From an uncultured Acidobacteriota bacterium (GTDB lineage: Bacteria; Acidobacteriota; UBA6911), in the NCBI GenBank assembly GCA_963809485.1, contig CAWEJX010000007.1, positions 672,001 to 736,000 on the forward strand: a stretch of 64,000 nt of DNA. The letters run 5' to 3'. Shown here one piece after another: positions 29,096 through 56,068 of the stretch (positions are counted from its first letter, which is position 1; each line of letters begins with the position of its first letter). The notes beneath the pieces are model-generated. The model made no database searches and was not told where the DNA came from. It worked only from the letters and a program-made list of their open reading frames with translations. The translations under genes were made by a program, and so were the position numbers.

Positions 29096-29175
29096 GTGGA
29101 ACGTGGAAGGTGGAACGTTTCACGTTTAAACGTTCCAACGTTCCAACGTTTAACGTTCCACGTTCCACCTTCCAC
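29096..29175. repeat. GGAACGT/ACGTTCC heptamer palindrome between convergent genes
   Basis: GTGGAACGTGGAAGGTGGAACG...CGTTCCACGTTCCACCTTCCAC. Confidence 0.8.
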
Positions 29176-29177
29176 AG

Positions 29178-30464
29178 CTATTGGCGTTCGGCGATCGGCA
29201 CGTAGTGATTCTCCTGAGGGCCGTTGTAGACCTGGCGCGGACGGTAAATGCGGCCTCCGGCGCTCTCCATGATTTCCCTGAAGTTCGCGATCCAGCCCGG
29301 CAGCCGCCCGATAGCGAACATCACCGTGTACATGTTCAGCGGAATCCCTATCGCCCGCATGATGATGCCGCTGTAGAAATCGACATTGGGATAAAGCTTC
29401 CGCTCAATGTAATAAGGATCGCTCAGCGCCGCCTCTTCCAGCCGCTTGGCTATGTCCAGAAGCGGATCCTTTTTCTTGAGCACGGCGAGCAGTTCGTCGC
29501 ACTTCCTTTTGATGATCCGGGCGCGCGGGTCGTAATTTTTATAGACGCGGTGCCCGAAACCCATCAGCCGTTTGCCCTGGCTTTTGTCTTTTGCCTGCTC
29601 GATGAATTTCGAGCCGTTGTCGCCGGACTGGTGGATTTCGTTGAGCATTTCCAGCACGGCCTGGTTGGCGCCCCCGTGCAGGGGGCCCCAGAGGGCGCAG
29701 ACGCCGGCAGCCGTGCTCGCGAAAAGATTCGCCTCGCTCGAAGCCACCATGCGGACGGTGGAAGTCGAACAGTTCTGCTCGTGGTCGGCGTGCAGGAGAA
29801 AAATCAAATCCAGCGCTTGAACGATCTCCGGGCGCAATTCGTAGTCCTGGTAAGGCTGCGAAAACATCATATGCAGGAGATTGGCCGTATACCTGTAGGT
29901 GGGCTTCGGGTAGATGATCGGCAGCCCGAGGGACTTGCGGTACGAAAACGCCGCTATGGTCCGCACTTGTGCAATGATGCGTGCAGCCTGGACCGTGAAC
30001 AACTCATGCTCCGGCTCCTCCAGCACCTGGGGGAAGAAACACCCCGCCGCGTTGATCATGGCCGAGAGTATGGCCATGGGATGCGCCTGCGCGGGGAAAC
30101 CCTCGAAGTGAACCCTCATGTCCTCGTGCAGCATCTCGTTCCGGGTGAGGAGGGCCGAAAAATCGTTGAGCTCCCGGCTGGTGGGCAGCTTTCCCCAGAT
30201 CAGCAGATAGGCGGCCTCTATGAAGGTGGACCGTTCCGCCAGTTCCTCTATCGGGATGCCCCGGTAGCGAAGAACGCCTCTTTCTCCGTCGATGAATGTG
30301 ATGTTGCTGACGCAGGAGCCGGTATTCCCATAGCCGTCGTCCAGCGTAATATACCCGGTTTTATTGCGCAGCGTTGCGATGTCGATCGCATGCTCTCCTT
30401 CGGATCCAACGACCACCGGAAACTCGTATTCTTTCCCGTCCAGCTGCAATTTGGCTGTTGCCAT
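29178..30464 (-). CDS. gltA: Citrate synthase (type II)
   Basis: HADHEQNCST, GPLHGGAN, GFGHRVYK, YPNVDFYSG. Confidence 0.95.
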   Translation of the reverse strand: MATAKLQLDGKEYEFPVVVGSEGEHAIDIATLRNKTGYITLDDGYGNTGSCVSNITFIDGERGVLRYRGIPIEELAERSTFIEAAYLLIWGKLPTSRELNDFSALLTRNEMLHEDMRVHFEGFPAQAHPMAILSAMINAAGCFFPQVLEEPEHELFTVQAARIIAQVRTIAAFSYRKSLGLPIIYPKPTYRYTANLLHMMFSQPYQDYELRPEIVQALDLIFLLHADHEQNCSTSTVRMVASSEANLFASTAAGVCALWGPLHGGANQAVLEMLNEIHQSGDNGSKFIEQAKDKSQGKRLMGFGHRVYKNYDPRARIIKRKCDELLAVLKKKDPLLDIAKRLEEAALSDPYYIERKLYPNVDFYSGIIMRAIGIPLNMYTVMFAIGRLPGWIANFREIMESAGGRIYRPRQVYNGPQENHYVPIAERQ

Positions 30465-41107: not shown

Positions 41108-42442
41108 ATGACGGAAAAGACCTGGGAAAACTACAAGCAGAATAAGCCGCTCAAGCCATCGCCTCTGAAGGATATCAAGGTCCTCGAAGTCTGCACCATG
41201 CTGCTGGGCCCCATGGGCCCGGCGTTGCTGGCGCAGCTGGGCGCCGAGGTGATACGCTGTGAAATCCCCCCGATGGGCGATTCCACCCGCTCGCTGAACC
41301 CGTTCGGATGGTTCCTGAAGGATCAAAGCCCCCTGCTTCTGCATATCAACCAGAACAAGTATTGGCTGGGACTCGACCTGCACAAGCGGGAGGCGCGCCG
41401 GATCTTCTGCGAGCTTGCCGCCAAGTGCGATATCGTCGAAAACAATTTCCGGCCGGGAGTCATGGAAGAGTGGGAAATCGGCTACCGGCAGATCCGTGCC
41501 ATCAATCCGGGGATCATCTTCCTGTCCAAGAGCGGCTACGGCCAGTGGGGCCAGTATGCCAGGGAGAACCGCCCGTCGAATGACGGCGCTTCCCAGGCCC
41601 TTTCCGGATACTCGTGGATGTCCCGCTTCCCCGGCCAGACGCCCCTGAAGATGCGCGCATACATCGGCGACAATTACGGCGCCATGAGCGCCGAGGTCGC
41701 CGTACTGGCTGCTCTCCATTACCGGGACAGGACCGGAAAGGGACAGTTCATCGAATTCTCGCAGACGGAAAATATCTTGAGGACCATGTCCTGGACCTGG
41801 CCCTATATCCAGCTCTCCGGCAGAAAGGCGGAGCCGGCCGGCAACCGGGATGTCTCCGTATGCCCCGCGGACACCTTCCGCTGCATCGACGACACTTTTG
41901 TCGCCCTCGCAGCGGCTGCCCCCGAGGAGTTCAAAGGCTTGTGCAAAGCCATGGACAAGCCGCAGCTGGCGGAAGACCCGAGGTTCAGAGACCACATCAC
42001 ACGGCTTAAAGAGGAGAACGCGACCGCCGTGTTGAAGATCATCGCCGATTGGGCACGGACGAAGCGGCCGGAAGAAATCGAGGCTCTGGCCGAACAGCAC
42101 GGCTTTGCTGCGAGCCACCTCTTTACGGCCAGGGACCTGGTCGAGAACGAGCACTTTCGCGCGAGAGATTTCTGGACGGAAATCGATGATGCGCTGATCG
42201 GCAAGTACCACAATTACGAATTTCCGGTAAAAATGTCGGGCACGCCGCCTCAGACCAGGTGGTCCGTGAGGCCGGTCGGTTTCGACAACGAGTTCATTCT
42301 GAAGAGCCTGCTGGGCAAGAACGACGAGCAAATCCGGCAACTGTACGAGGCCGGAGCCCTGGGCAAGTGGGCGGACGCTCAGGGCCGCCGCCCGCCGCCG
42401 GATTGGGACGGCAAAGCGGGACTCAACGTGGCAAAAAGCTGA
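41108..42442 (+). CDS. Family III CoA-transferase (CaiB/BaiF), Asp-containing subunit
   Basis: PLKDIKVLE, LGAEVI, ENNFRPG, SGYGQWGQ, IGDNYGA. Confidence 0.9.
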   Translation: MTEKTWENYKQNKPLKPSPLKDIKVLEVCTMLLGPMGPALLAQLGAEVIRCEIPPMGDSTRSLNPFGWFLKDQSPLLLHINQNKYWLGLDLHKREARRIFCELAAKCDIVENNFRPGVMEEWEIGYRQIRAINPGIIFLSKSGYGQWGQYARENRPSNDGASQALSGYSWMSRFPGQTPLKMRAYIGDNYGAMSAEVAVLAALHYRDRTGKGQFIEFSQTENILRTMSWTWPYIQLSGRKAEPAGNRDVSVCPADTFRCIDDTFVALAAAAPEEFKGLCKAMDKPQLAEDPRFRDHITRLKEENATAVLKIIADWARTKRPEEIEALAEQHGFAASHLFTARDLVENEHFRARDFWTEIDDALIGKYHNYEFPVKMSGTPPQTRWSVRPVGFDNEFILKSLLGKNDEQIRQLYEAGALGKWADAQGRRPPPDWDGKAGLNVAKS

Positions 42443-42472: not shown

Positions 42473-43822
42473 ATGGCCAGCAAGGCACGGCGCGATTGGT
42501 CGGAGTGGGCGGATTGGATCCGGGAAAGAGACGATCCCAAAATTGCACATACAAAACCTGAAGCACTGGACGACATCATAGTGCTGGACCTGAGTTCCAA
42601 AAACTTTGGCGGATGCGCCTGCTCCACGGCGCTGTCCGAATTCGGCGCAAAAGTTTTGAGGATTGAACCCCCGGAGGGCGATTTCATCCGGACCTGCACG
42701 CCCTACGGATTCCTGCACCAGGGCGAAGGATTGAATTACCTGACCGAGGGCAGGAACAAACTGCACATCACCCTGGACCTGGAAAAGCCGCAGGCAAGGG
42801 AGATGCTCAAGGAGCTTGTGTACAAGGCGGATGTCCTCATCGAAACCTACAAACCCGGAACGATGGAGGCATGGGGCCTGGGATATGAGCAGCTGAAAAC
42901 GGTCAACCCGGGGCTTATCTATGCCTCCCTTACCGGCTACGGAGTGTTCGGCCCCATGAGCCGGAGCCGCATGCCCGACTACGACAATGTCGCCCAGGCC
43001 AGGTCCGGATTCCAGTACGACACCGGTGAGCGGCTGCCGGCCGGCAAAACCATAGACGACTGCCCCTGGGCGATCCCCACAAAGTCCGGTCCCTGGATCG
43101 CCTGGTGCATGTCGGGAACATTCATGGCTATGGGGATCCTGGCTGCACTGCACTGGAAGTTCCGCACGGGCGAGGGACAAGCTCTGGAAATCGCCACCGC
43201 GGAAGCCTACGCCCGTATCGACGATTTCGTCGCGCTCTGGTACGAGCACGAAGGCCGCATCAACGAACGTTTCGGCAACCTGGACACCGCCATCTGGCTT
43301 TACTGCTTTGCGCCCACGCGGGACGGAGCCGTCTTTTTAGGCGGCCTGAGGCTGGAGATGTGGCAGGCTTTCGCGGATATGATCGGCAAGTGGGACGAAT
43401 GGGGAGCCGCCGGCTGGACCAGCATCGCGCCATTCACCCGCGAGGAAGAACAGCTCAAATGGTCCGCCATGATCTTCGAGGAAACGCGCAAGTACACCAG
43501 CGACGAGCTTCTGAACATGTCCCTGGAATATTCCAAACACGGACGCCTGGCGCCGATAACGTGCGTGGTGGCGGCCGTACTGCCTCCCGAAGAAGCCATC
43601 AAGGATCCCAACTGGCTCGACCGCGGCATCTTCACGCCCGTTCAGGATCCGGTCTACGGAGAGATCGTTGCCGCGCAGGCGCAATATAAATTGACCGAAA
43701 CCCCAATCCGGGTCCGTTGGGTGTGCCGCCCTGTCGGCTACGACAACGAGTCTGTCTACTCGCAATACCTGGGGCTCGATGCTTCCCGGATTATGGATTT
43801 AAAAAGGGAAGGTGTAATTTAG
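42473..43822 (+). CDS. Family III CoA-transferase paralog lacking the catalytic Asp
   Basis: FGAKVLRIEPPEGD, ETYKPG, TGYGVFGP; IAWCMSG at the position of the IGD motif. Confidence 0.85.
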   Translation: MASKARRDWSEWADWIRERDDPKIAHTKPEALDDIIVLDLSSKNFGGCACSTALSEFGAKVLRIEPPEGDFIRTCTPYGFLHQGEGLNYLTEGRNKLHITLDLEKPQAREMLKELVYKADVLIETYKPGTMEAWGLGYEQLKTVNPGLIYASLTGYGVFGPMSRSRMPDYDNVAQARSGFQYDTGERLPAGKTIDDCPWAIPTKSGPWIAWCMSGTFMAMGILAALHWKFRTGEGQALEIATAEAYARIDDFVALWYEHEGRINERFGNLDTAIWLYCFAPTRDGAVFLGGLRLEMWQAFADMIGKWDEWGAAGWTSIAPFTREEEQLKWSAMIFEETRKYTSDELLNMSLEYSKHGRLAPITCVVAAVLPPEEAIKDPNWLDRGIFTPVQDPVYGEIVAAQAQYKLTETPIRVRWVCRPVGYDNESVYSQYLGLDASRIMDLKREGVI

Positions 43823-43827
43823 AGCTA

Positions 43828-44425
43828 TAACGCTGACGGACGCTGAAAAAACGCTGACATACGCTGACACAAAAAAATTTATAGATATATTTTTTCAGCG
43901 TATGTCAGCGTTTCCGTCGGCGTAGGTCAGCGTATAATAGCGGAGCGGCCTTCATTAAAGCCTTGGATGTTGCCGAACTTCATGGCATTTCGCGCCCGTT
44001 GATGAATCACCCGTTTTCTTTGAAGTGCTTCCGGATAATTTTACCCACATCAGGCGGATATTCCGCTTTTCCGACACTGACGGACGCTGAGAGAAGCGCT
44101 GACAAACGCTGACTCAAAAAAATTTATAGATATATTTTTTCAGCGTATGTCAGCGTTCCGTCGGCGTAGGTCAGCGTATAATAGCGGAGCGGCCTTCATT
44201 AAAGCCTTGGATGTTGCCGAACTTCATGGCATTTCGCGCCCGTTGATGAATCACCCGTTTTCTTTGAAGTGCTTCCGGATAATTTTACCCACATCAGGCG
44301 GATATTCCGCTTTTCCGACACTGACGGACGCTGAGAGAAGCGCTGACAAACGCTGACTCAAAAAAATTTATAGATATATTTTTTCAGCGTATGTCAGCGT
44401 TTCTGTCGGCGTCCGTCAGCGTTCA
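43828..44425. repeat. Array of three ACGCTGAC palindromes separated by two identical iorB-derived fragments (period ~244 bp)
   Basis: 43937-44083 = 44181-44327; both match 44426-44460 joined to 44581-44693. Confidence 0.9.
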
Positions 44426-45015
44426 ATAGCGGAGCGGCCTTCATTAAAGGCCTGGATGTTGATCTCGTGCAGCCGGGCGGGCAGCATCTCCCTGATGGCT
44501 TCGATCCACTGCCCGGCGTTCAGCTCGGGGAAGAATCCCGATACGGCGCCGAGGATGACAACGTTCGCTACCTGGATGTTGCCGAGCTTCCTGGCGATTT
44601 CCCGCCCGTTGACGACCCACACGTTTTCTTTGAAGTGCTTCCGGAAAATTTTCTCCACATCCGGCGGATACTCCGCTTTGCCGAGGCTGACGGTCGGGGG
44701 AAGGATCTTCTGGTTGTTGAGGATCACTTTGCCGTCGGGCTTCAGCCAGTTCAGGTAGCGCAAGGCCTCCAGAAGCTCGAAGGAGATGAGGTAATCCGCG
44801 TCCCCCTGCTTGATGAGGGGCGAGTGCACCTTCCGGCCGAAGCGGAAGTGCGTCGTGACGTCGCCGCCGCGCTGGGCCATGCCGTGGACTTCCGCCTTCT
44901 TCACGTCATAGCCGGCATTGAGCAAAACCTGGCCGAGGATATTGCTCGCGAGGATGGTGCCCTGTCCTCCCACGCCTGAAAGAAATATGTTTCTGGTCCT
45001 GCCGTCATTGGACAT
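44416..45015 (-). CDS. iorB: Indolepyruvate/arylpyruvate:ferredoxin oxidoreductase beta subunit
   Basis: GVGGQG, EVHGMAQRGG, FELLEALR. Confidence 0.92.
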   Translation of the reverse strand: MSNDGRTRNIFLSGVGGQGTILASNILGQVLLNAGYDVKKAEVHGMAQRGGDVTTHFRFGRKVHSPLIKQGDADYLISFELLEALRYLNWLKPDGKVILNNQKILPPTVSLGKAEYPPDVEKIFRKHFKENVWVVNGREIARKLGNIQVANVVILGAVSGFFPELNAGQWIEAIREMLPARLHEINIQAFNEGRSAIER

Positions 45016-45025
45016 AGTCTCCTCC

Positions 45026-46846
45026 TCACTCTTCACGCGGCATGATGCTTTCAAATTCGCAGACCTGCGTGCACACGCCGCAGCCGACGCACTGGTCCTC
45101 ATTGATGAAGGCCGTGCCCTTTCTCTTGCGGCCGCTGCGGGTAACCCCCTCACCCGCCTGGAAGCTTATGGACGGGCAGTTGATGTCCAGGCACAGTTTG
45201 CACCCCATGCAGTTATCCTCGTTGATCCTGTAGGACCGGTGGCTGAAGCGCTCGAGCGGCCGGGCCCTGCGCAGCAGCATGCAGGGGCTGTTTTGAGTGA
45301 TGATGACGGACGCGGCGTCCCGGTTCACTTCCTCGCGGATCACCTCCATGGTTTCCTTGATATTGTAAGGGTCCACCATCCTCACGTGCTGGACCCCGAC
45401 TGCCTTCGCCAGCTGCTCGTAGTCGACCGTCGTCGCCGGGTCGCCCTTGATGGTGTGCCCTGTACCCGGGTGCTCCTGCTGCCCCGTCATCGCCGTAATG
45501 CGGTTGTCCAGGATGATCGTAGTGGAGTAGCCGCCGTTATAAACGGCATCCATGAGCGGGCCGATGCCGCCGTGCAGGAAAGTCGAATCGCCCAGAACGG
45601 CGCACAGTTTGCCCAGTCCCTCGCTCCCCAGCGCCTTGCCCGCGCCATAGGCTCCGCCTATGCCGGCGCCCATGCAGGTGGAGGCGTGCATGGCGGAAAG
45701 CGGCGGCGCGACAGCCAGGCCGTAGCAGCCGATGTCGCCGAAGACGAAGAGGCGCAGTTTTTTCAGCGCGTAAAACAGCGGCCGGTGAGAGCACCCGGCA
45801 CACAGGTTCGGCGGCCTCTGAGGCAGGTCCTGAGTCTGTATGCGCGGTTTGGCGGGCTTGTAGCTTTTGCGCGTCACGGGCTTCGACAGCGATTTTTCCA
45901 GAATGCCCGGCGTCAGTTCGCCGATGGCCGGGATGAGATCCTTCCCGTGCCACACCTTGTATCCCATTGCGCGGATCTCTGTTTCAAAGAAAGTATCCAG
46001 CTCCTCGACTATAATCACTTTTTTGACTTTGCTGAAAAACTCCGCAATCAGCTTGCGCGGCATGGGCCACACCATGCCGAGCTTCAGGAAGGAATACCGG
46101 GGAAAGAGCTCTTTGGCATACAGGCAGGACACGCCCGCGGAAATGAACCCGATGGACGGATCGTTGATCTCCATCGTGTTGCAGGGGAACTCCTCGTCCG
46201 CGTAGGCTGCCAGCTTGCCGATGCGCTCCTCGACGAAAACCCGCCGGACCCTTGCGTACATGGGCACCATGACATTTTTGGGCGTAAGGCTTCGGTCGAG
46301 CCCCCTGGGCATGGCCGACTCCTTCCTCTCTTCCAGCTCGACCGGGGAGTCGCAGTGCGAGACCCGGGTCTCGGTCCGCACCAGTACCGGCGTGTCGAAC
46401 CGTTCGCTGATGTCAAAGGCGATCTTCGTGAACTCCTTGCACTCCTGCGAGTCGGCGGGTTCGAGCATGGGCACTTTGCCGAAGCGCGTCCAGTGCCTGC
46501 TGTCCTGCTCGTTCTGGGAGCTGTGCTGCCCGGGATCGTCCGCCACGACGATGACGAAGCCTCCCCGGACGCCGGTGTAGGAGATGGTCATGAGCGGATC
46601 GGCCGCAACATTCAGGCCGACATGTTTCATGCAGGCGATCGCGCGGCCCCCCGCGAGCGAAGCGCCGTGCGCCACTTCCACCGCTACTTTTTCGTTGGGA
46701 GACCATTCCGTATAAACTTCTTTGTATCCCGCCAGTTCGGCCATGATTTCGCTGCTGGGAGTCCCGGGATAGGCGCACCCGACGGCGGCGCCCGCCTCCC
46801 ACGCTCCCCTGGCAATAGCCGCATTGCCCTGAAGTATCTTCTTCAT
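45026..46846 (-). CDS. iorA: Indolepyruvate/arylpyruvate:ferredoxin oxidoreductase alpha subunit
   Basis: YPGTPSSE, MKHVGLNVAAD, SSQNEQD, CAGCSHR, GDIGCY, GDSTF, 2x[4Fe-4S]. Confidence 0.95.
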   Translation of the reverse strand: MKKILQGNAAIARGAWEAGAAVGCAYPGTPSSEIMAELAGYKEVYTEWSPNEKVAVEVAHGASLAGGRAIACMKHVGLNVAADPLMTISYTGVRGGFVIVVADDPGQHSSQNEQDSRHWTRFGKVPMLEPADSQECKEFTKIAFDISERFDTPVLVRTETRVSHCDSPVELEERKESAMPRGLDRSLTPKNVMVPMYARVRRVFVEERIGKLAAYADEEFPCNTMEINDPSIGFISAGVSCLYAKELFPRYSFLKLGMVWPMPRKLIAEFFSKVKKVIIVEELDTFFETEIRAMGYKVWHGKDLIPAIGELTPGILEKSLSKPVTRKSYKPAKPRIQTQDLPQRPPNLCAGCSHRPLFYALKKLRLFVFGDIGCYGLAVAPPLSAMHASTCMGAGIGGAYGAGKALGSEGLGKLCAVLGDSTFLHGGIGPLMDAVYNGGYSTTIILDNRITAMTGQQEHPGTGHTIKGDPATTVDYEQLAKAVGVQHVRMVDPYNIKETMEVIREEVNRDAASVIITQNSPCMLLRRARPLERFSHRSYRINEDNCMGCKLCLDINCPSISFQAGEGVTRSGRKRKGTAFINEDQCVGCGVCTQVCEFESIMPREE

Positions 46847-46937
46847 GCTGCCTCCTGAATTCCTTCCTGACCCGCTCACAAAAAGCAGAAGTATATATCA
46901 TCTCCGCCCGCTGTTTGATGGGGAAACTTCGATTACA

Positions 46938-51007: not shown

Positions 51008-51067
51008 GTGGAAGGTGGAACGTGGAACGTTAGAACGTTGGAACGTTTTCACGTTGCACGTTCCACG
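51008..51067. repeat. GGAACGT heptamer palindrome
   Basis: GTGGAAGGTGGAACGTGGAACG...CACGTTCCACG. Confidence 0.75.
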
Positions 51068-51070
51068 TTT

Positions 51071-51343
51071 TCAGTTAGGGCGCTGCTTTTCGGGGCGGGC
51101 GGGCTCTTCGGTCTCCCTGCGGCGCTTCGGGCGGTCTTCCTTGCGCGGCGTTTTCAAGGCGGCTTTCTCTTCATTGCTGATCCCGTCCGCAAACGGGCGG
51201 ATGGCATCCGGACCGGCTTCCCGACTTATGTGCCGGTGCTGAGTTTTGGTTTTGGCCACCAGTTCGGCAAACAGCAAAAAAACCACCGCAAGCCCGAGAA
51301 GGATCATTCCTCCGCCCAGCAGAATATACGTGAGCCAGTTCAT
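51071..51343 (-). CDS. Hypothetical small membrane protein
   Basis: GGGGGAAG SD, N-terminal TM, charged tail. Confidence 0.55.
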   Translation of the reverse strand: MNWLTYILLGGGMILLGLAVVFLLFAELVAKTKTQHRHISREAGPDAIRPFADGISNEEKAALKTPRKEDRPKRRRETEEPARPEKQRPN

Positions 51344-54921: not shown

Positions 54922-54990
54922 GTGGAAGGTGGAACGTGAAACGTGGAAAATTCGTTCAAACGTTCAACGTTCAAACGTTTCCACGTTCAC
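54922..54990. repeat. GGAACGT heptamer palindrome in the amrS leader
   Basis: GTGGAAGGTGGAACGTGAAACGTGGAAA...TTTCCACGTTCAC. Confidence 0.75.
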
Positions 54991-55000
54991 GGATGCGATT

Positions 55001-56068
55001 ATGGCTACGCTGGGGGAAGTGCTTCAGCAATACACAGTCCTGGGGGACTTATTCGAAACGCTGGACGGCGGGCGGGTGCGGTGCTTTGCCTGCGCGCACC
55101 GCTGCACCATCGCGAACGGGGAGACGGGATTCTGCCGTCTGCGCGTCAACCGCGCAGGCAAGCTCTACGTGCCTTTCGGGTACGTGTCGGGCGCTCAATG
55201 CGACCCGGTGGAGAAAAAACCTTTCTTTCACGTGCGTCCCGGCGCTGCCGCTTACAGCTTCGGCATGCTGGGATGCAATTTCCACTGCAGTTTCTGCCAG
55301 AACTGGGTGACCTCGCAGGCGTTGCGCGAATCCATCGCGGTCTCCCCTCCCTTCCGGACGACGCCCGACGAGCTTGTCCGGTCGGCTCTCGATCACGGGG
55401 CGGAGATCGTCGTCAGCACCTATAACGAACCGCTGATCACCAGCGAGTGGGCTGTGGCGGTGTTCCGGAAAGCCCGGGCCGCCGGTCTGTTGACGGCTTA
55501 TGTTTCCAACGGATATGCAACCCGGGAATCGCTCGAATACCTGCGTCCCTGGCTGGACCTTTATAAAGTCGACCTGAAGAGTTTCGACGAAGGCCGTTAC
55601 CGGCGCCTGGGAGGACAGCTGCAGCCGATCCTCGAAACCATTCGCAGCCTTTACGAGATGGGATTATGGGTGGAGATCGTTACCCTGCTCATACCGGGAT
55701 TCAACGATTCCGAGGAAGAACTGATCCGCCTGACGGAGTTTATCGGCGGAGTCTCTCCCGATATCCCGTGGCACGTTACCGCCTTCCACAAGGACTACAA
55801 AATGACCGGTCCGGAAAACACCGTTCCCGGAGACCTTGCCCGAGCCGCCGCAATCGGACGGAAAAGCGGGCTGCGGTATATTTATGCTGGAAACCTGCCC
55901 GGAAGATCGGGGACCTCGGAGAACACCTACTGTCCCGGGTGCAGCCAACTGCTGGTGGAGCGCTACGGATACCGCATCCTCAAGAACCGGCTGACCCCCG
56001 AAGGCGTCTGTCCCTCGTGCAGCCTGGCTATCCCCGGCAGGTGGGCGGACCGCTCCGCTACTCGATGA
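55001..56068 (+). CDS. amrS: AmmeMemoRadiSam system radical SAM enzyme
   Basis: DPVEKKP, GCNFHCSFCQNW, YNEP, YIYAGN, TYCPGC. Confidence 0.88.
   Translation: MATLGEVLQQYTVLGDLFETLDGGRVRCFACAHRCTIANGETGFCRLRVNRAGKLYVPFGYVSGAQCDPVEKKPFFHVRPGAAAYSFGMLGCNFHCSFCQNWVTSQALRESIAVSPPFRTTPDELVRSALDHGAEIVVSTYNEPLITSEWAVAVFRKARAAGLLTAYVSNGYATRESLEYLRPWLDLYKVDLKSFDEGRYRRLGGQLQPILETIRSLYEMGLWVEIVTLLIPGFNDSEEELIRLTEFIGGVSPDIPWHVTAFHKDYKMTGPENTVPGDLARAAAIGRKSGLRYIYAGNLPGRSGTSENTYCPGCSQLLVERYGYRILKNRLTPEGVCPSCSLAIPGRWADRSATR

Follow-up and report, generated by a model that had tools for sequence, protein, structure and literature searches.

How did three hairpin-forming palindromes and two identical pieces of gene sequence come to alternate at the stop codon of an iorB-like gene, and do they form a system? 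The array occupies positions 43826-44426 of the window, a stretch of 64,000 nucleotides (positions 672,001 to 736,000 of the forward strand of contig CAWEJX010000007.1, GenBank assembly GCA_963809485.1) from an uncultured Acidobacteriota bacterium of the lineage UBA6911. An earlier note on this DNA had seen in the array a possible repeat-based capture or antisense-guide system and had named neutral debris as the alternative. The decay pattern of the gene pieces and the comparisons reported here favour the latter: the locus is very probably a by-product of neutral, recurrent, local tandem duplication at a dispersed, lineage-specific, non-coding hairpin repeat similar to repetitive extragenic palindromic (REP) sequences, REPINs or MITEs (miniature inverted-repeat transposable elements). 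This explanation requires no function of the array, and none is indicated.

The array at the iorB stop codon

A palindrome, a fragment of 133-147 bp, a second palindrome, an identical fragment and a third palindrome lead up to the iorB stop, in the order and with the period of about 244 bp that the earlier note had described. The features of the array and the parts of iorB to which they relate are listed below.

43826..43936, no strand: palindrome 1 (distal); four ACGCTGAC-type octamers per arm with 10-11-bp spacing, AT-rich core; fold -58.2 kcal/mol, z -11.8
43937..44069, minus strand: iorB 3'-end pseudo-fragment, copy 1 (alignment to iorB, BLAST)
44070..44180, no strand: palindrome 2, hybrid of its neighbours (arm comparison)
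44181..44313, minus strand: iorB 3'-end pseudo-fragment, copy 2, same as copy 1 (alignment, BLAST)
44314..44426, no strand: palindrome 3, adjoins iorB; right arm forms the last iorB codons and the stop; fold -67.5 kcal/mol, z -13.9
43912..44155, no strand: first identical 244-bp unit (sequence comparison)
44156..44399, no strand: second identical 244-bp unit (sequence comparison)
44416..45153, minus strand: iorB-like gene with POR domain (Pfam PF01558), longest open reading frame (ORF; domain match)
44461..44580, minus strand: 120-bp iorB segment missing from the fragments, between the CCTGGATGTTG repeats; kept in the iorB of the closest relative
44686..44693, no strand: GCTGACGG within iorB, microhomology with the left arm at 43833-43840 at the duplication junction (sequence comparison)

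Tandem Repeats Finder detects one array, which spans 43833-44461 with a period of 244, 2.6 copies and 96% matches. The two 244-bp units are 100% identical, and their exact number is known from the assembly alone. Among public sequencing runs none contained half or more of the words sampled from 43700-44800 (best share 0.12), no RNA run with the stretch was listed, and the four runs compared contained only relatives at about 90-98% identity.

Each palindrome is about 110 bp long, with arms of ACGCTGAC-type octamers 10-11 bp apart around an AT-rich core. Folded as RNA, palindromes 1, 2 and 3 reach -58, -50 and -67 kcal/mol, corresponding to z values of -11.8, -7.9 and -13.9 against 200 shuffles. 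The arm motif ACGCTGACNNACGCTGA, allowing one mismatch at most, occurs 42 times in the window and not at all in each of 100 shuffles. A core of 43 bp is common to the three palindromes; because its only three exact copies in the genome are all at the iorB locus, the three go back to a single element at this site. Palindrome 2 agrees with palindrome 3 in the left arm at 44 of 44 positions and with palindrome 1 in the right arm save for a 1-nt indel, while the right arm of palindrome 3 differs at five positions. By this comparison palindrome 2 is a left-arm/right-arm hybrid of its neighbours, which is the product that unequal crossover within the shared core would be expected to leave. The last three codons of iorB, GAA CGC TGA (44416-44426), sit inside the right arm of palindrome 3, so that the gene takes its stop codon from the element.

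Alignment identifies the fragment as iorB 44426-44460 joined to 44581-44693, the edited 3' end that had been recognized before. It lacks the 120 bp between the 11-bp direct repeats CCTGGATGTTG at 44451-44461 and 44571-44581 and one base opposite iorB 44598. Fifteen substitutions are found in 44586-44686, two in the stop-proximal piece and two beside the stop; the nonsense change that the earlier note had reported among them turns a Trp codon into a stop (translation 'KENG*'). The CTGACGG microhomology noted at the junction is likewise present as GCTGACGG, with which the fragment ends and which is common to iorB (44686-44693) and the left repeat arm (43833-43840). BLAST of the 6.04-Mb genome gave no match to the fragment besides the neighbouring iorB, which is therefore regarded as its source; an origin from a paralogue, whether another iorB copy or another locus, was rejected on the same result.

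Thirteen of the 15 substitutions in 44586-44686 are specific to the fragment, as the iorB genes of this genome (G000) and of its closest relative (G006) agree at these positions. One is derived in iorB, the fragment retaining the ancestral base, and one is ambiguous. Third, second and first codon positions are affected in the ratio 7:3:5, and the 14 changes not assigned to the iorB lineage include nine from GC to AT and two from AT to GC. Since the changes are nearly all fragment-specific, extend over all codon positions and are biased from GC to AT, the divergence indicates what is probably the neutral decay of an unselected pseudo-fragment. A diverged functional paralogue and a directed 'editing' were both rejected because the substitution pattern fits neither.

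The array can be derived from a single ACGCTGAC-type hairpin element that would have stood right at the stop codon of iorB. Some 365 bp, consisting of most of the element and the last ~270 bp of iorB, would have been duplicated head to tail, joining the 8-bp GCTGACGG of the element's left arm with the same 8-mer inside iorB, presumably by replication slippage or template switching. The copy detached from iorB would then have decayed unselected, with about 17 substitutions including the nonsense codon, the loss of one nucleotide, and the removal of 120 bp by slippage between the 11-bp direct repeats. A very recent unequal crossover or slippage within the 43-bp core may finally have added one palindrome-plus-fragment unit, resulting in two identical 244-bp units and a hybrid middle palindrome. 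For the enzymatic mechanism behind the observed layout, junction microhomology, hybrid palindrome and comparison with relatives we infer slippage or recombination at each step. What tandem duplication by microhomology followed by unequal crossover calls for is found at the locus: head-to-tail copies, the 8-bp GCTGACGG junction, the hybrid palindrome 2 and absence from close relatives. The locus would be an unusually readable stepwise record of the way in which tandem duplications of gene ends arise from a hairpin repeat; in it a microhomology junction is followed by slippage deletions and then by an unequal crossover that leaves a hybrid repeat.

The genes around the array are the following.

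42473..43822, plus strand: family III CoA-transferase gene, convergent, stops just short of palindrome 1 (domain match)
41108-42442, plus strand: second family III CoA-transferase ORF (domain match)
45026..46879, minus strand: iorA-like gene with TPP_enzyme_C, POR_N and 4Fe-4S domains (domain match)

ORFs 44416-45153 and 45026-46879 form an iorBA-like pair; in relatives other than the closest one, homology to the iorB-like ORF begins at about residue 44-46. The genes annotated within about 4 kb encode two CoA-transferases, IorA, IorB, an aldo-keto reductase and a zf-HC2 protein, and no dedicated machinery is suggested by the flanking CoA-transferase and iorAB genes.

The hairpin family and its other arrays

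An nhmmer profile built from the three palindromes of the iorB locus and run over the 6.04-Mb genome gave 520 matches, which merge into 339 loci with a median match length of 79 bp. Counts of the exact motif in 30 genomes of the genus are 220 for this genome, 55 for G006 and no more than one for each of the other 28; a backwards control pattern has no occurrence. The whole element is 70-105 bp long, has arms of three to four iterated octamers and the consensus ends AACGCTGAC...GTCAGCGTT. Stand-alone copies read taACGCTGAC...GTCAGCGTta, many with TA on both sides; this TA is self-complementary and may be a target duplication or a mere extension of the inverted repeat. About 74 of the 191 copies that can be delimited form part of a larger dispersed repeat, whose consensus flanks are CCGGTCTTGA and TTCAAAATAC. 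This larger repeat has well over 100 copies, with segments of 66-80 bp at 90-98% identity (e.g., C4:69931-70062 and C9:122593-123371, the prefixes denoting contigs of the assembly), and often flanks the ACGCTGAC module.

Elements are concentrated at C7:650-790 kb and C8:600-674 kb, with 39 loci each. Taken together, C7:650000-790672 and C8:600000-673698 hold 78 of the 339 loci and four of the six element arrays in about 215 kb, or 3.6% of the genome; these two contig ends may be adjacent in the chromosome. On this distribution, and because the motif is near-absent from 28 of the 30 genus members, the idea of a DNA uptake sequence was rejected. With crude longest-ORF calls, which make both figures indicative only, 80 of 248 intergenic elements lie between convergent genes compared with 791 of 3633 intergenic gaps, a modest enrichment, and 91 of the 339 elements fall 'inside' mostly short and probably spurious ORFs. 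Of the two transposase families searched, Y1_Tnp (four genes) and DDE_3 (one gene), neither has a member within 4 kb of an element; the nearest element is 4.1 to 32 kb from the four Y1_Tnp matches.

The element also supplies a stop codon, sometimes with the last few codons, at 44416-44426, C8:627630-627649, C5:14822-14833 and C7:251436-251438. TGA lies within ACGCTGAC, and TAA arises at the element's TA/A boundary; the 10-11-bp spacing of the octamers makes a stop available in every frame.

Rfam has no family for the element. Its nine matches at E values up to 1 are all microRNA-precursor hairpins far below their gathering scores and were dismissed as generic hairpin matches. Literature searches on REP join-point duplications and on repeats of Acidobacteria returned nothing specific to this element. 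The triple-iterated ACGCTGA pattern was found at 115 or more loci from many phyla in a collection of genome contigs; 80 of these (L018-L097) were inspected, and ten show a hairpin layout, i.e., at least two motif copies on both strands. One of the ten, L070, is a contig of an Acidobacteriota metagenome-assembled genome that carries the same element, with AACGCTGAC-type arms, AT-rich core and TAA flanks. In viral contigs, the only collection on which the backwards control was run, the pattern has 23 loci and the control 42. A heptamer conserved across phyla is therefore not claimed, an arbitrary 7-mer being at least as frequent there.

The earlier note had asked whether other host fragments are bracketed by the repeat. 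They do exist, at four further arrays, and all are local tandem copies. Genome-wide, 45 Tandem Repeats Finder rows with a period of at least 50 were grouped into 32 distinct arrays, six of which contain the element. The five besides that at iorB are:

C8:627586-628264: 138 bp x 4.9; the unit adds the last ~44 bp of an RluD-like gene
C8:639869-640787: 154 bp x 6; the unit adds the last ~66 bp of a DUF5916/CBM9 gene
C5:14805-15146: 170 bp x 2; the unit adds NuoM-like and GuaA-like gene tails
C8:618502-618914: 208 bp x 2; the unit adds an HNH gene tail, half an element and the dprA 5' region
C7:251433-252241: 117 bp x 6.9; the unit adds a 14-bp spacer only

Adjacent sequence is thus carried by five of the six element arrays, that at iorB and four others, all four with gene 3' ends. 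In two of the arrays there is also a higher-order period, of 275 bp (98%) and 461 bp (97%), as is expected if arrays grow by unequal crossover.

When 25 inter-element spacers of 25-800 bp were matched against the genome, eight had no match other than themselves. Among the 17 with a match, 14 matched only their own array or its immediate neighbourhood, two hit another high-copy dispersed repeat, and one gave a weak 46-bp match of 85% identity on another contig; a clear origin from a distant locus was found for none of the 25. Judged by these matches, the bracketed host fragments, where traceable, are apparently adjacent DNA repeated head to tail and not acquisitions. The proposal that the element captured and amplified flanking host sequence thus stands in so far as element and flank were duplicated together; it does not stand as a capture system, since the traceable fragments are adjacent tandem copies.

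Orthologous sites in related genomes

The locus was compared with the closest relative, with contigs from three metagenome runs (X1-X3) and with six further members of the genus, as the earlier note had suggested. The closest relative and two sets of the metagenome contigs have a single, different hairpin at the site and lack the iorB fragment. In G006 the iorB and CoA-transferase genes are 98% and 95% identical to those of this genome. The intergenic region of about 166 bp contains one hairpin of another type, made of AACGTT-type units with a period of 8, next to a full-length iorB tail. No iorB fragment was found in it, and the 120-bp segment is present in the G006 iorB. Contigs of X1 and X2 join 43779 to 44429 via 171 other letters, and that of X3 has AACGTT-type sequence beside the iorB stop, as in G006. 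The fragment is absent downstream of iorB in all six further genus members, four of which have hairpin-like or short-tandem-repeat sequences of other short motifs there. By this comparison the arrays are young and lineage-specific.

Motifs seen at the orthologous intergenic sites (L002 2275-2400; L004, L005 and L006 downstream of iorB; L016 near G006:C10:2293-2372) are AACGTTGG, GACTTTGAGTC, CTGGAAT, GGGGTC and CCACCTT. G006 keeps just two arm octamers at the RluD locus, and a CCACCTT/GGTGGAA hairpin takes the place of the element at its DUF5916 locus. The hairpin type of G006 differs from that of this genome at two loci despite flanking genes that are 84-98% identical. Each species of the genus has its own hairpin family of short iterated motifs, and the families swap at the same intergenic sites, which is of some evolutionary interest.

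A second intergenic family in this genome has period-8 units of the AACGTT, CCACGTT and CCACCTT types, which often form hairpins; in the window it is found at 29122-29200, 51027-51100 and 54967-55010 (C7:701122, 723027 and 726967). The pattern ACGTT-N3-ACGTT-N3-ACGTT has 59 overlapping matches in the genome.

Between G000 and G006 the synonymous divergence (dS) is 0.079 for iorB and 0.199 for the CoA-transferase gene, a 2.5-fold difference between adjacent convergent genes. This contrast hints at a possible recombination boundary in or near the hairpin region.

Competing explanations and known systems

Several observations weigh against an origin of the array by neutral tandem duplication. Divergence in the fragment lineage amounts to about 10% (15 of ~147 positions), which equals or exceeds the per-lineage neutral divergence derived from the dS between G000 and G006, yet the ACGCTGAC element is missing at this site in G006; the first duplication would accordingly be about as old as the split, unless recombination replaced the locus in one of the lineages or mutation is faster near hairpins. 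All three palindromes have the identical 43-bp core, but in the left arm palindrome 1 differs considerably from palindromes 2 and 3, so that gene conversion of the core or selection on it would be needed. The second identical unit has only the assembly behind it, and junction microhomology is clear at the iorB array only, the C5 and C8:618502 arrays showing 0-2 bp. Finally, each palindrome contains a sigma-70-like sequence on the plus strand, CTGACA/CTGACT-N16-TATATT at 43864-43891, 44109-44136 and 44353-44380, and the 1.2-kb region has five promoter-like sites compared with 1.1 +/- 0.9 in shuffles. The site in palindrome 3 faces iorB, and antisense transcription into this gene is possible.

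In a repeat-based capture or antisense-guide system the element would take up host sequence, and RNAs bounded by hairpins and antisense to iorB would serve as guides or regulators. Element-bracketed host fragments at five loci, fragments antisense to the convergent CoA-transferase operon, the promoter-like site of each element facing iorB and the finding of no terminator-like site in 43600-44800 would agree with such a system. It is nevertheless highly improbable: 14 of the 17 matched spacers copy adjacent DNA and none is clearly distant, the two spacers at iorB are identical to each other and show unselected decay, the array is missing from the closest relative and the related metagenome contigs, no associated gene set lies nearby, and Rfam gives only sub-threshold microRNA hairpins. 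The ACGCTGAC hairpin could also be an active, protein-recognised element whose helically phased octamers are recombination or cleavage sites. It would duplicate adjacent gene ends (five loci), rewrite last codons and stops, replace other hairpin types (two loci in comparison with the closest relative) and drive antisense RNAs from its internal promoter-like site. Were this unlikely view correct, the iorB array would be a regulatory or variation-generating structure and not debris. REP elements are known to block read-through or to protect mRNA 3' ends, and the additional hairpins that separate the convergent operons of CoA-transferase and iorAB might be kept for these purposes. In favour are the great stability of the hairpins, the modest enrichment of the elements between convergent genes by the crude ORF calls, and the 43-bp core that is the same in the three copies; selection for such a multi-hairpin 3' structure is still improbable, as a single hairpin suffices in close relatives, the fragments between the hairpins are decaying, and the arrays vary in length and content from locus to locus without a common design.

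One-ended transposition captures flanking DNA, and a transposase acting in trans might have taken the octamer-like AGGCTGAC in iorB as a false end and moved the element with the gene tail next door. The distal iorB breakpoint indeed lies within a 7/8 match to the arm octamer, a ACGCTGAC octamer is found 6 bp past the breakpoint in the guaA-like gene of the C5 array, and the TA on both sides of stand-alone elements would fit a TA target duplication. Every copy, however, lies at the source locus in strict head-to-tail order, no locus other than that at iorB has the 43-bp core, none of the four Y1_Tnp genes and one DDE_3 gene is within 4 kb of an element, the flanking TA is ambiguous in that it also extends the palindrome, and the hybrid middle palindrome better matches homologous exchange; aberrant transposition is thus quite unlikely. 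Much the same holds for the suspicion that the second 244-bp unit was made by the assembler and that the true locus has one fragment, which would account for two identical units known from one assembly. Assemblers usually collapse identical tandem units and do not create them, five other arrays of two to seven units with their own variants stand in the same assembly, and at least one diverged fragment and the intact iorB tail are real, differing at about 17 positions and by two deletions, so that such an artefact has little probability. Neutral tandem duplication at the hairpin element accordingly remains the preferred explanation, and neither the array nor the turnover of hairpin families requires a new kind of system.

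The element is a REP/MITE-like hairpin repeat that is not assigned to a named family. With CRISPR arrays the locus shares repeats that alternate with 'spacers' at a regular period. CRISPR arrays have direct repeats of about 21-48 bp and unique spacers of foreign or non-adjacent origin, whereas the repeats here are palindromes of about 110 bp and the spacers are identical and derived from the neighbouring iorB. No cas-like gene is among the genes annotated within about 4 kb, the search not having been extended to the whole genome, and a CRISPR array was rejected on these grounds. For annotation the case is of value in that such arrays can be mistaken for loci of a CRISPR-like or guide-RNA kind, and small ORFs can be called in the decayed gene tails. 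An integron attC array, considered for the density of elements in two regions and their position at gene 3' ends, was rejected as well: the best score for an integron integrase (TIGR02249) in the genome, which is 95.7% complete, is 100 bits, far short of the cut-off of 265, and the genes on either side belong to ordinary metabolism.

The Correia elements of Neisseria are bacterial MITEs, small and non-coding, with terminal inverted repeats and many copies; they lie at gene ends and can supply stop codons. Like these, the present element is small, non-coding and multi-copy (339 loci), with palindromic ends and a promoter-like sequence inside; its TA flanks may be a target duplication or belong to the palindrome. 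Unlike MITEs in general it has no autonomous partner in the two transposase families searched, Y1_Tnp and DDE_3, and its arms of iterated octamers are an unusual structure that sets it apart from Correia-type elements. Shyamala and co-workers (EMBO J, 1990) reportedly found that tandem chromosomal duplications in Salmonella have REP sequences at their join points. Both cases have a dispersed palindromic repeat as the recombination site that creates a tandem duplication; the Salmonella duplications measure tens of kb and join two separate REP copies, whereas here one end of the first duplication is a chance 8-bp match in a gene and the unit is a few hundred bp long.

For the REPINs of Pseudomonas fluorescens SBW25, tandem hairpin arrays with flanking sequence in the unit are already on record (Bertels and Rainey, 2011, PMC3116915). 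These REPIN/REP clusters resemble the present case in being dispersed extragenic hairpin repeats with tandem units that include flanking sequence at several sites per genome. A REPIN consists of two short REPs, and the present element of one hairpin, 70-105 bp long, with three to four iterated octamers per arm and an AT-rich core; its array at iorB, unlike the SBW25 clusters, holds an old, diverged gene fragment of 133-147 bp. In contrast to RAYT-linked REPs, no Y1 (RAYT-type) gene stands beside any copy. A REP is defined (PMC3733652) as an imperfect palindrome of 20-40 bp tagged with GTAG or CGTC at one end. The present element ends in AACGCTGAC...GTCAGCGTT and measures 70-105 bp as a whole, which departs from this definition, while its ordered tandem clusters that include flanking sequence agree with those of SBW25.

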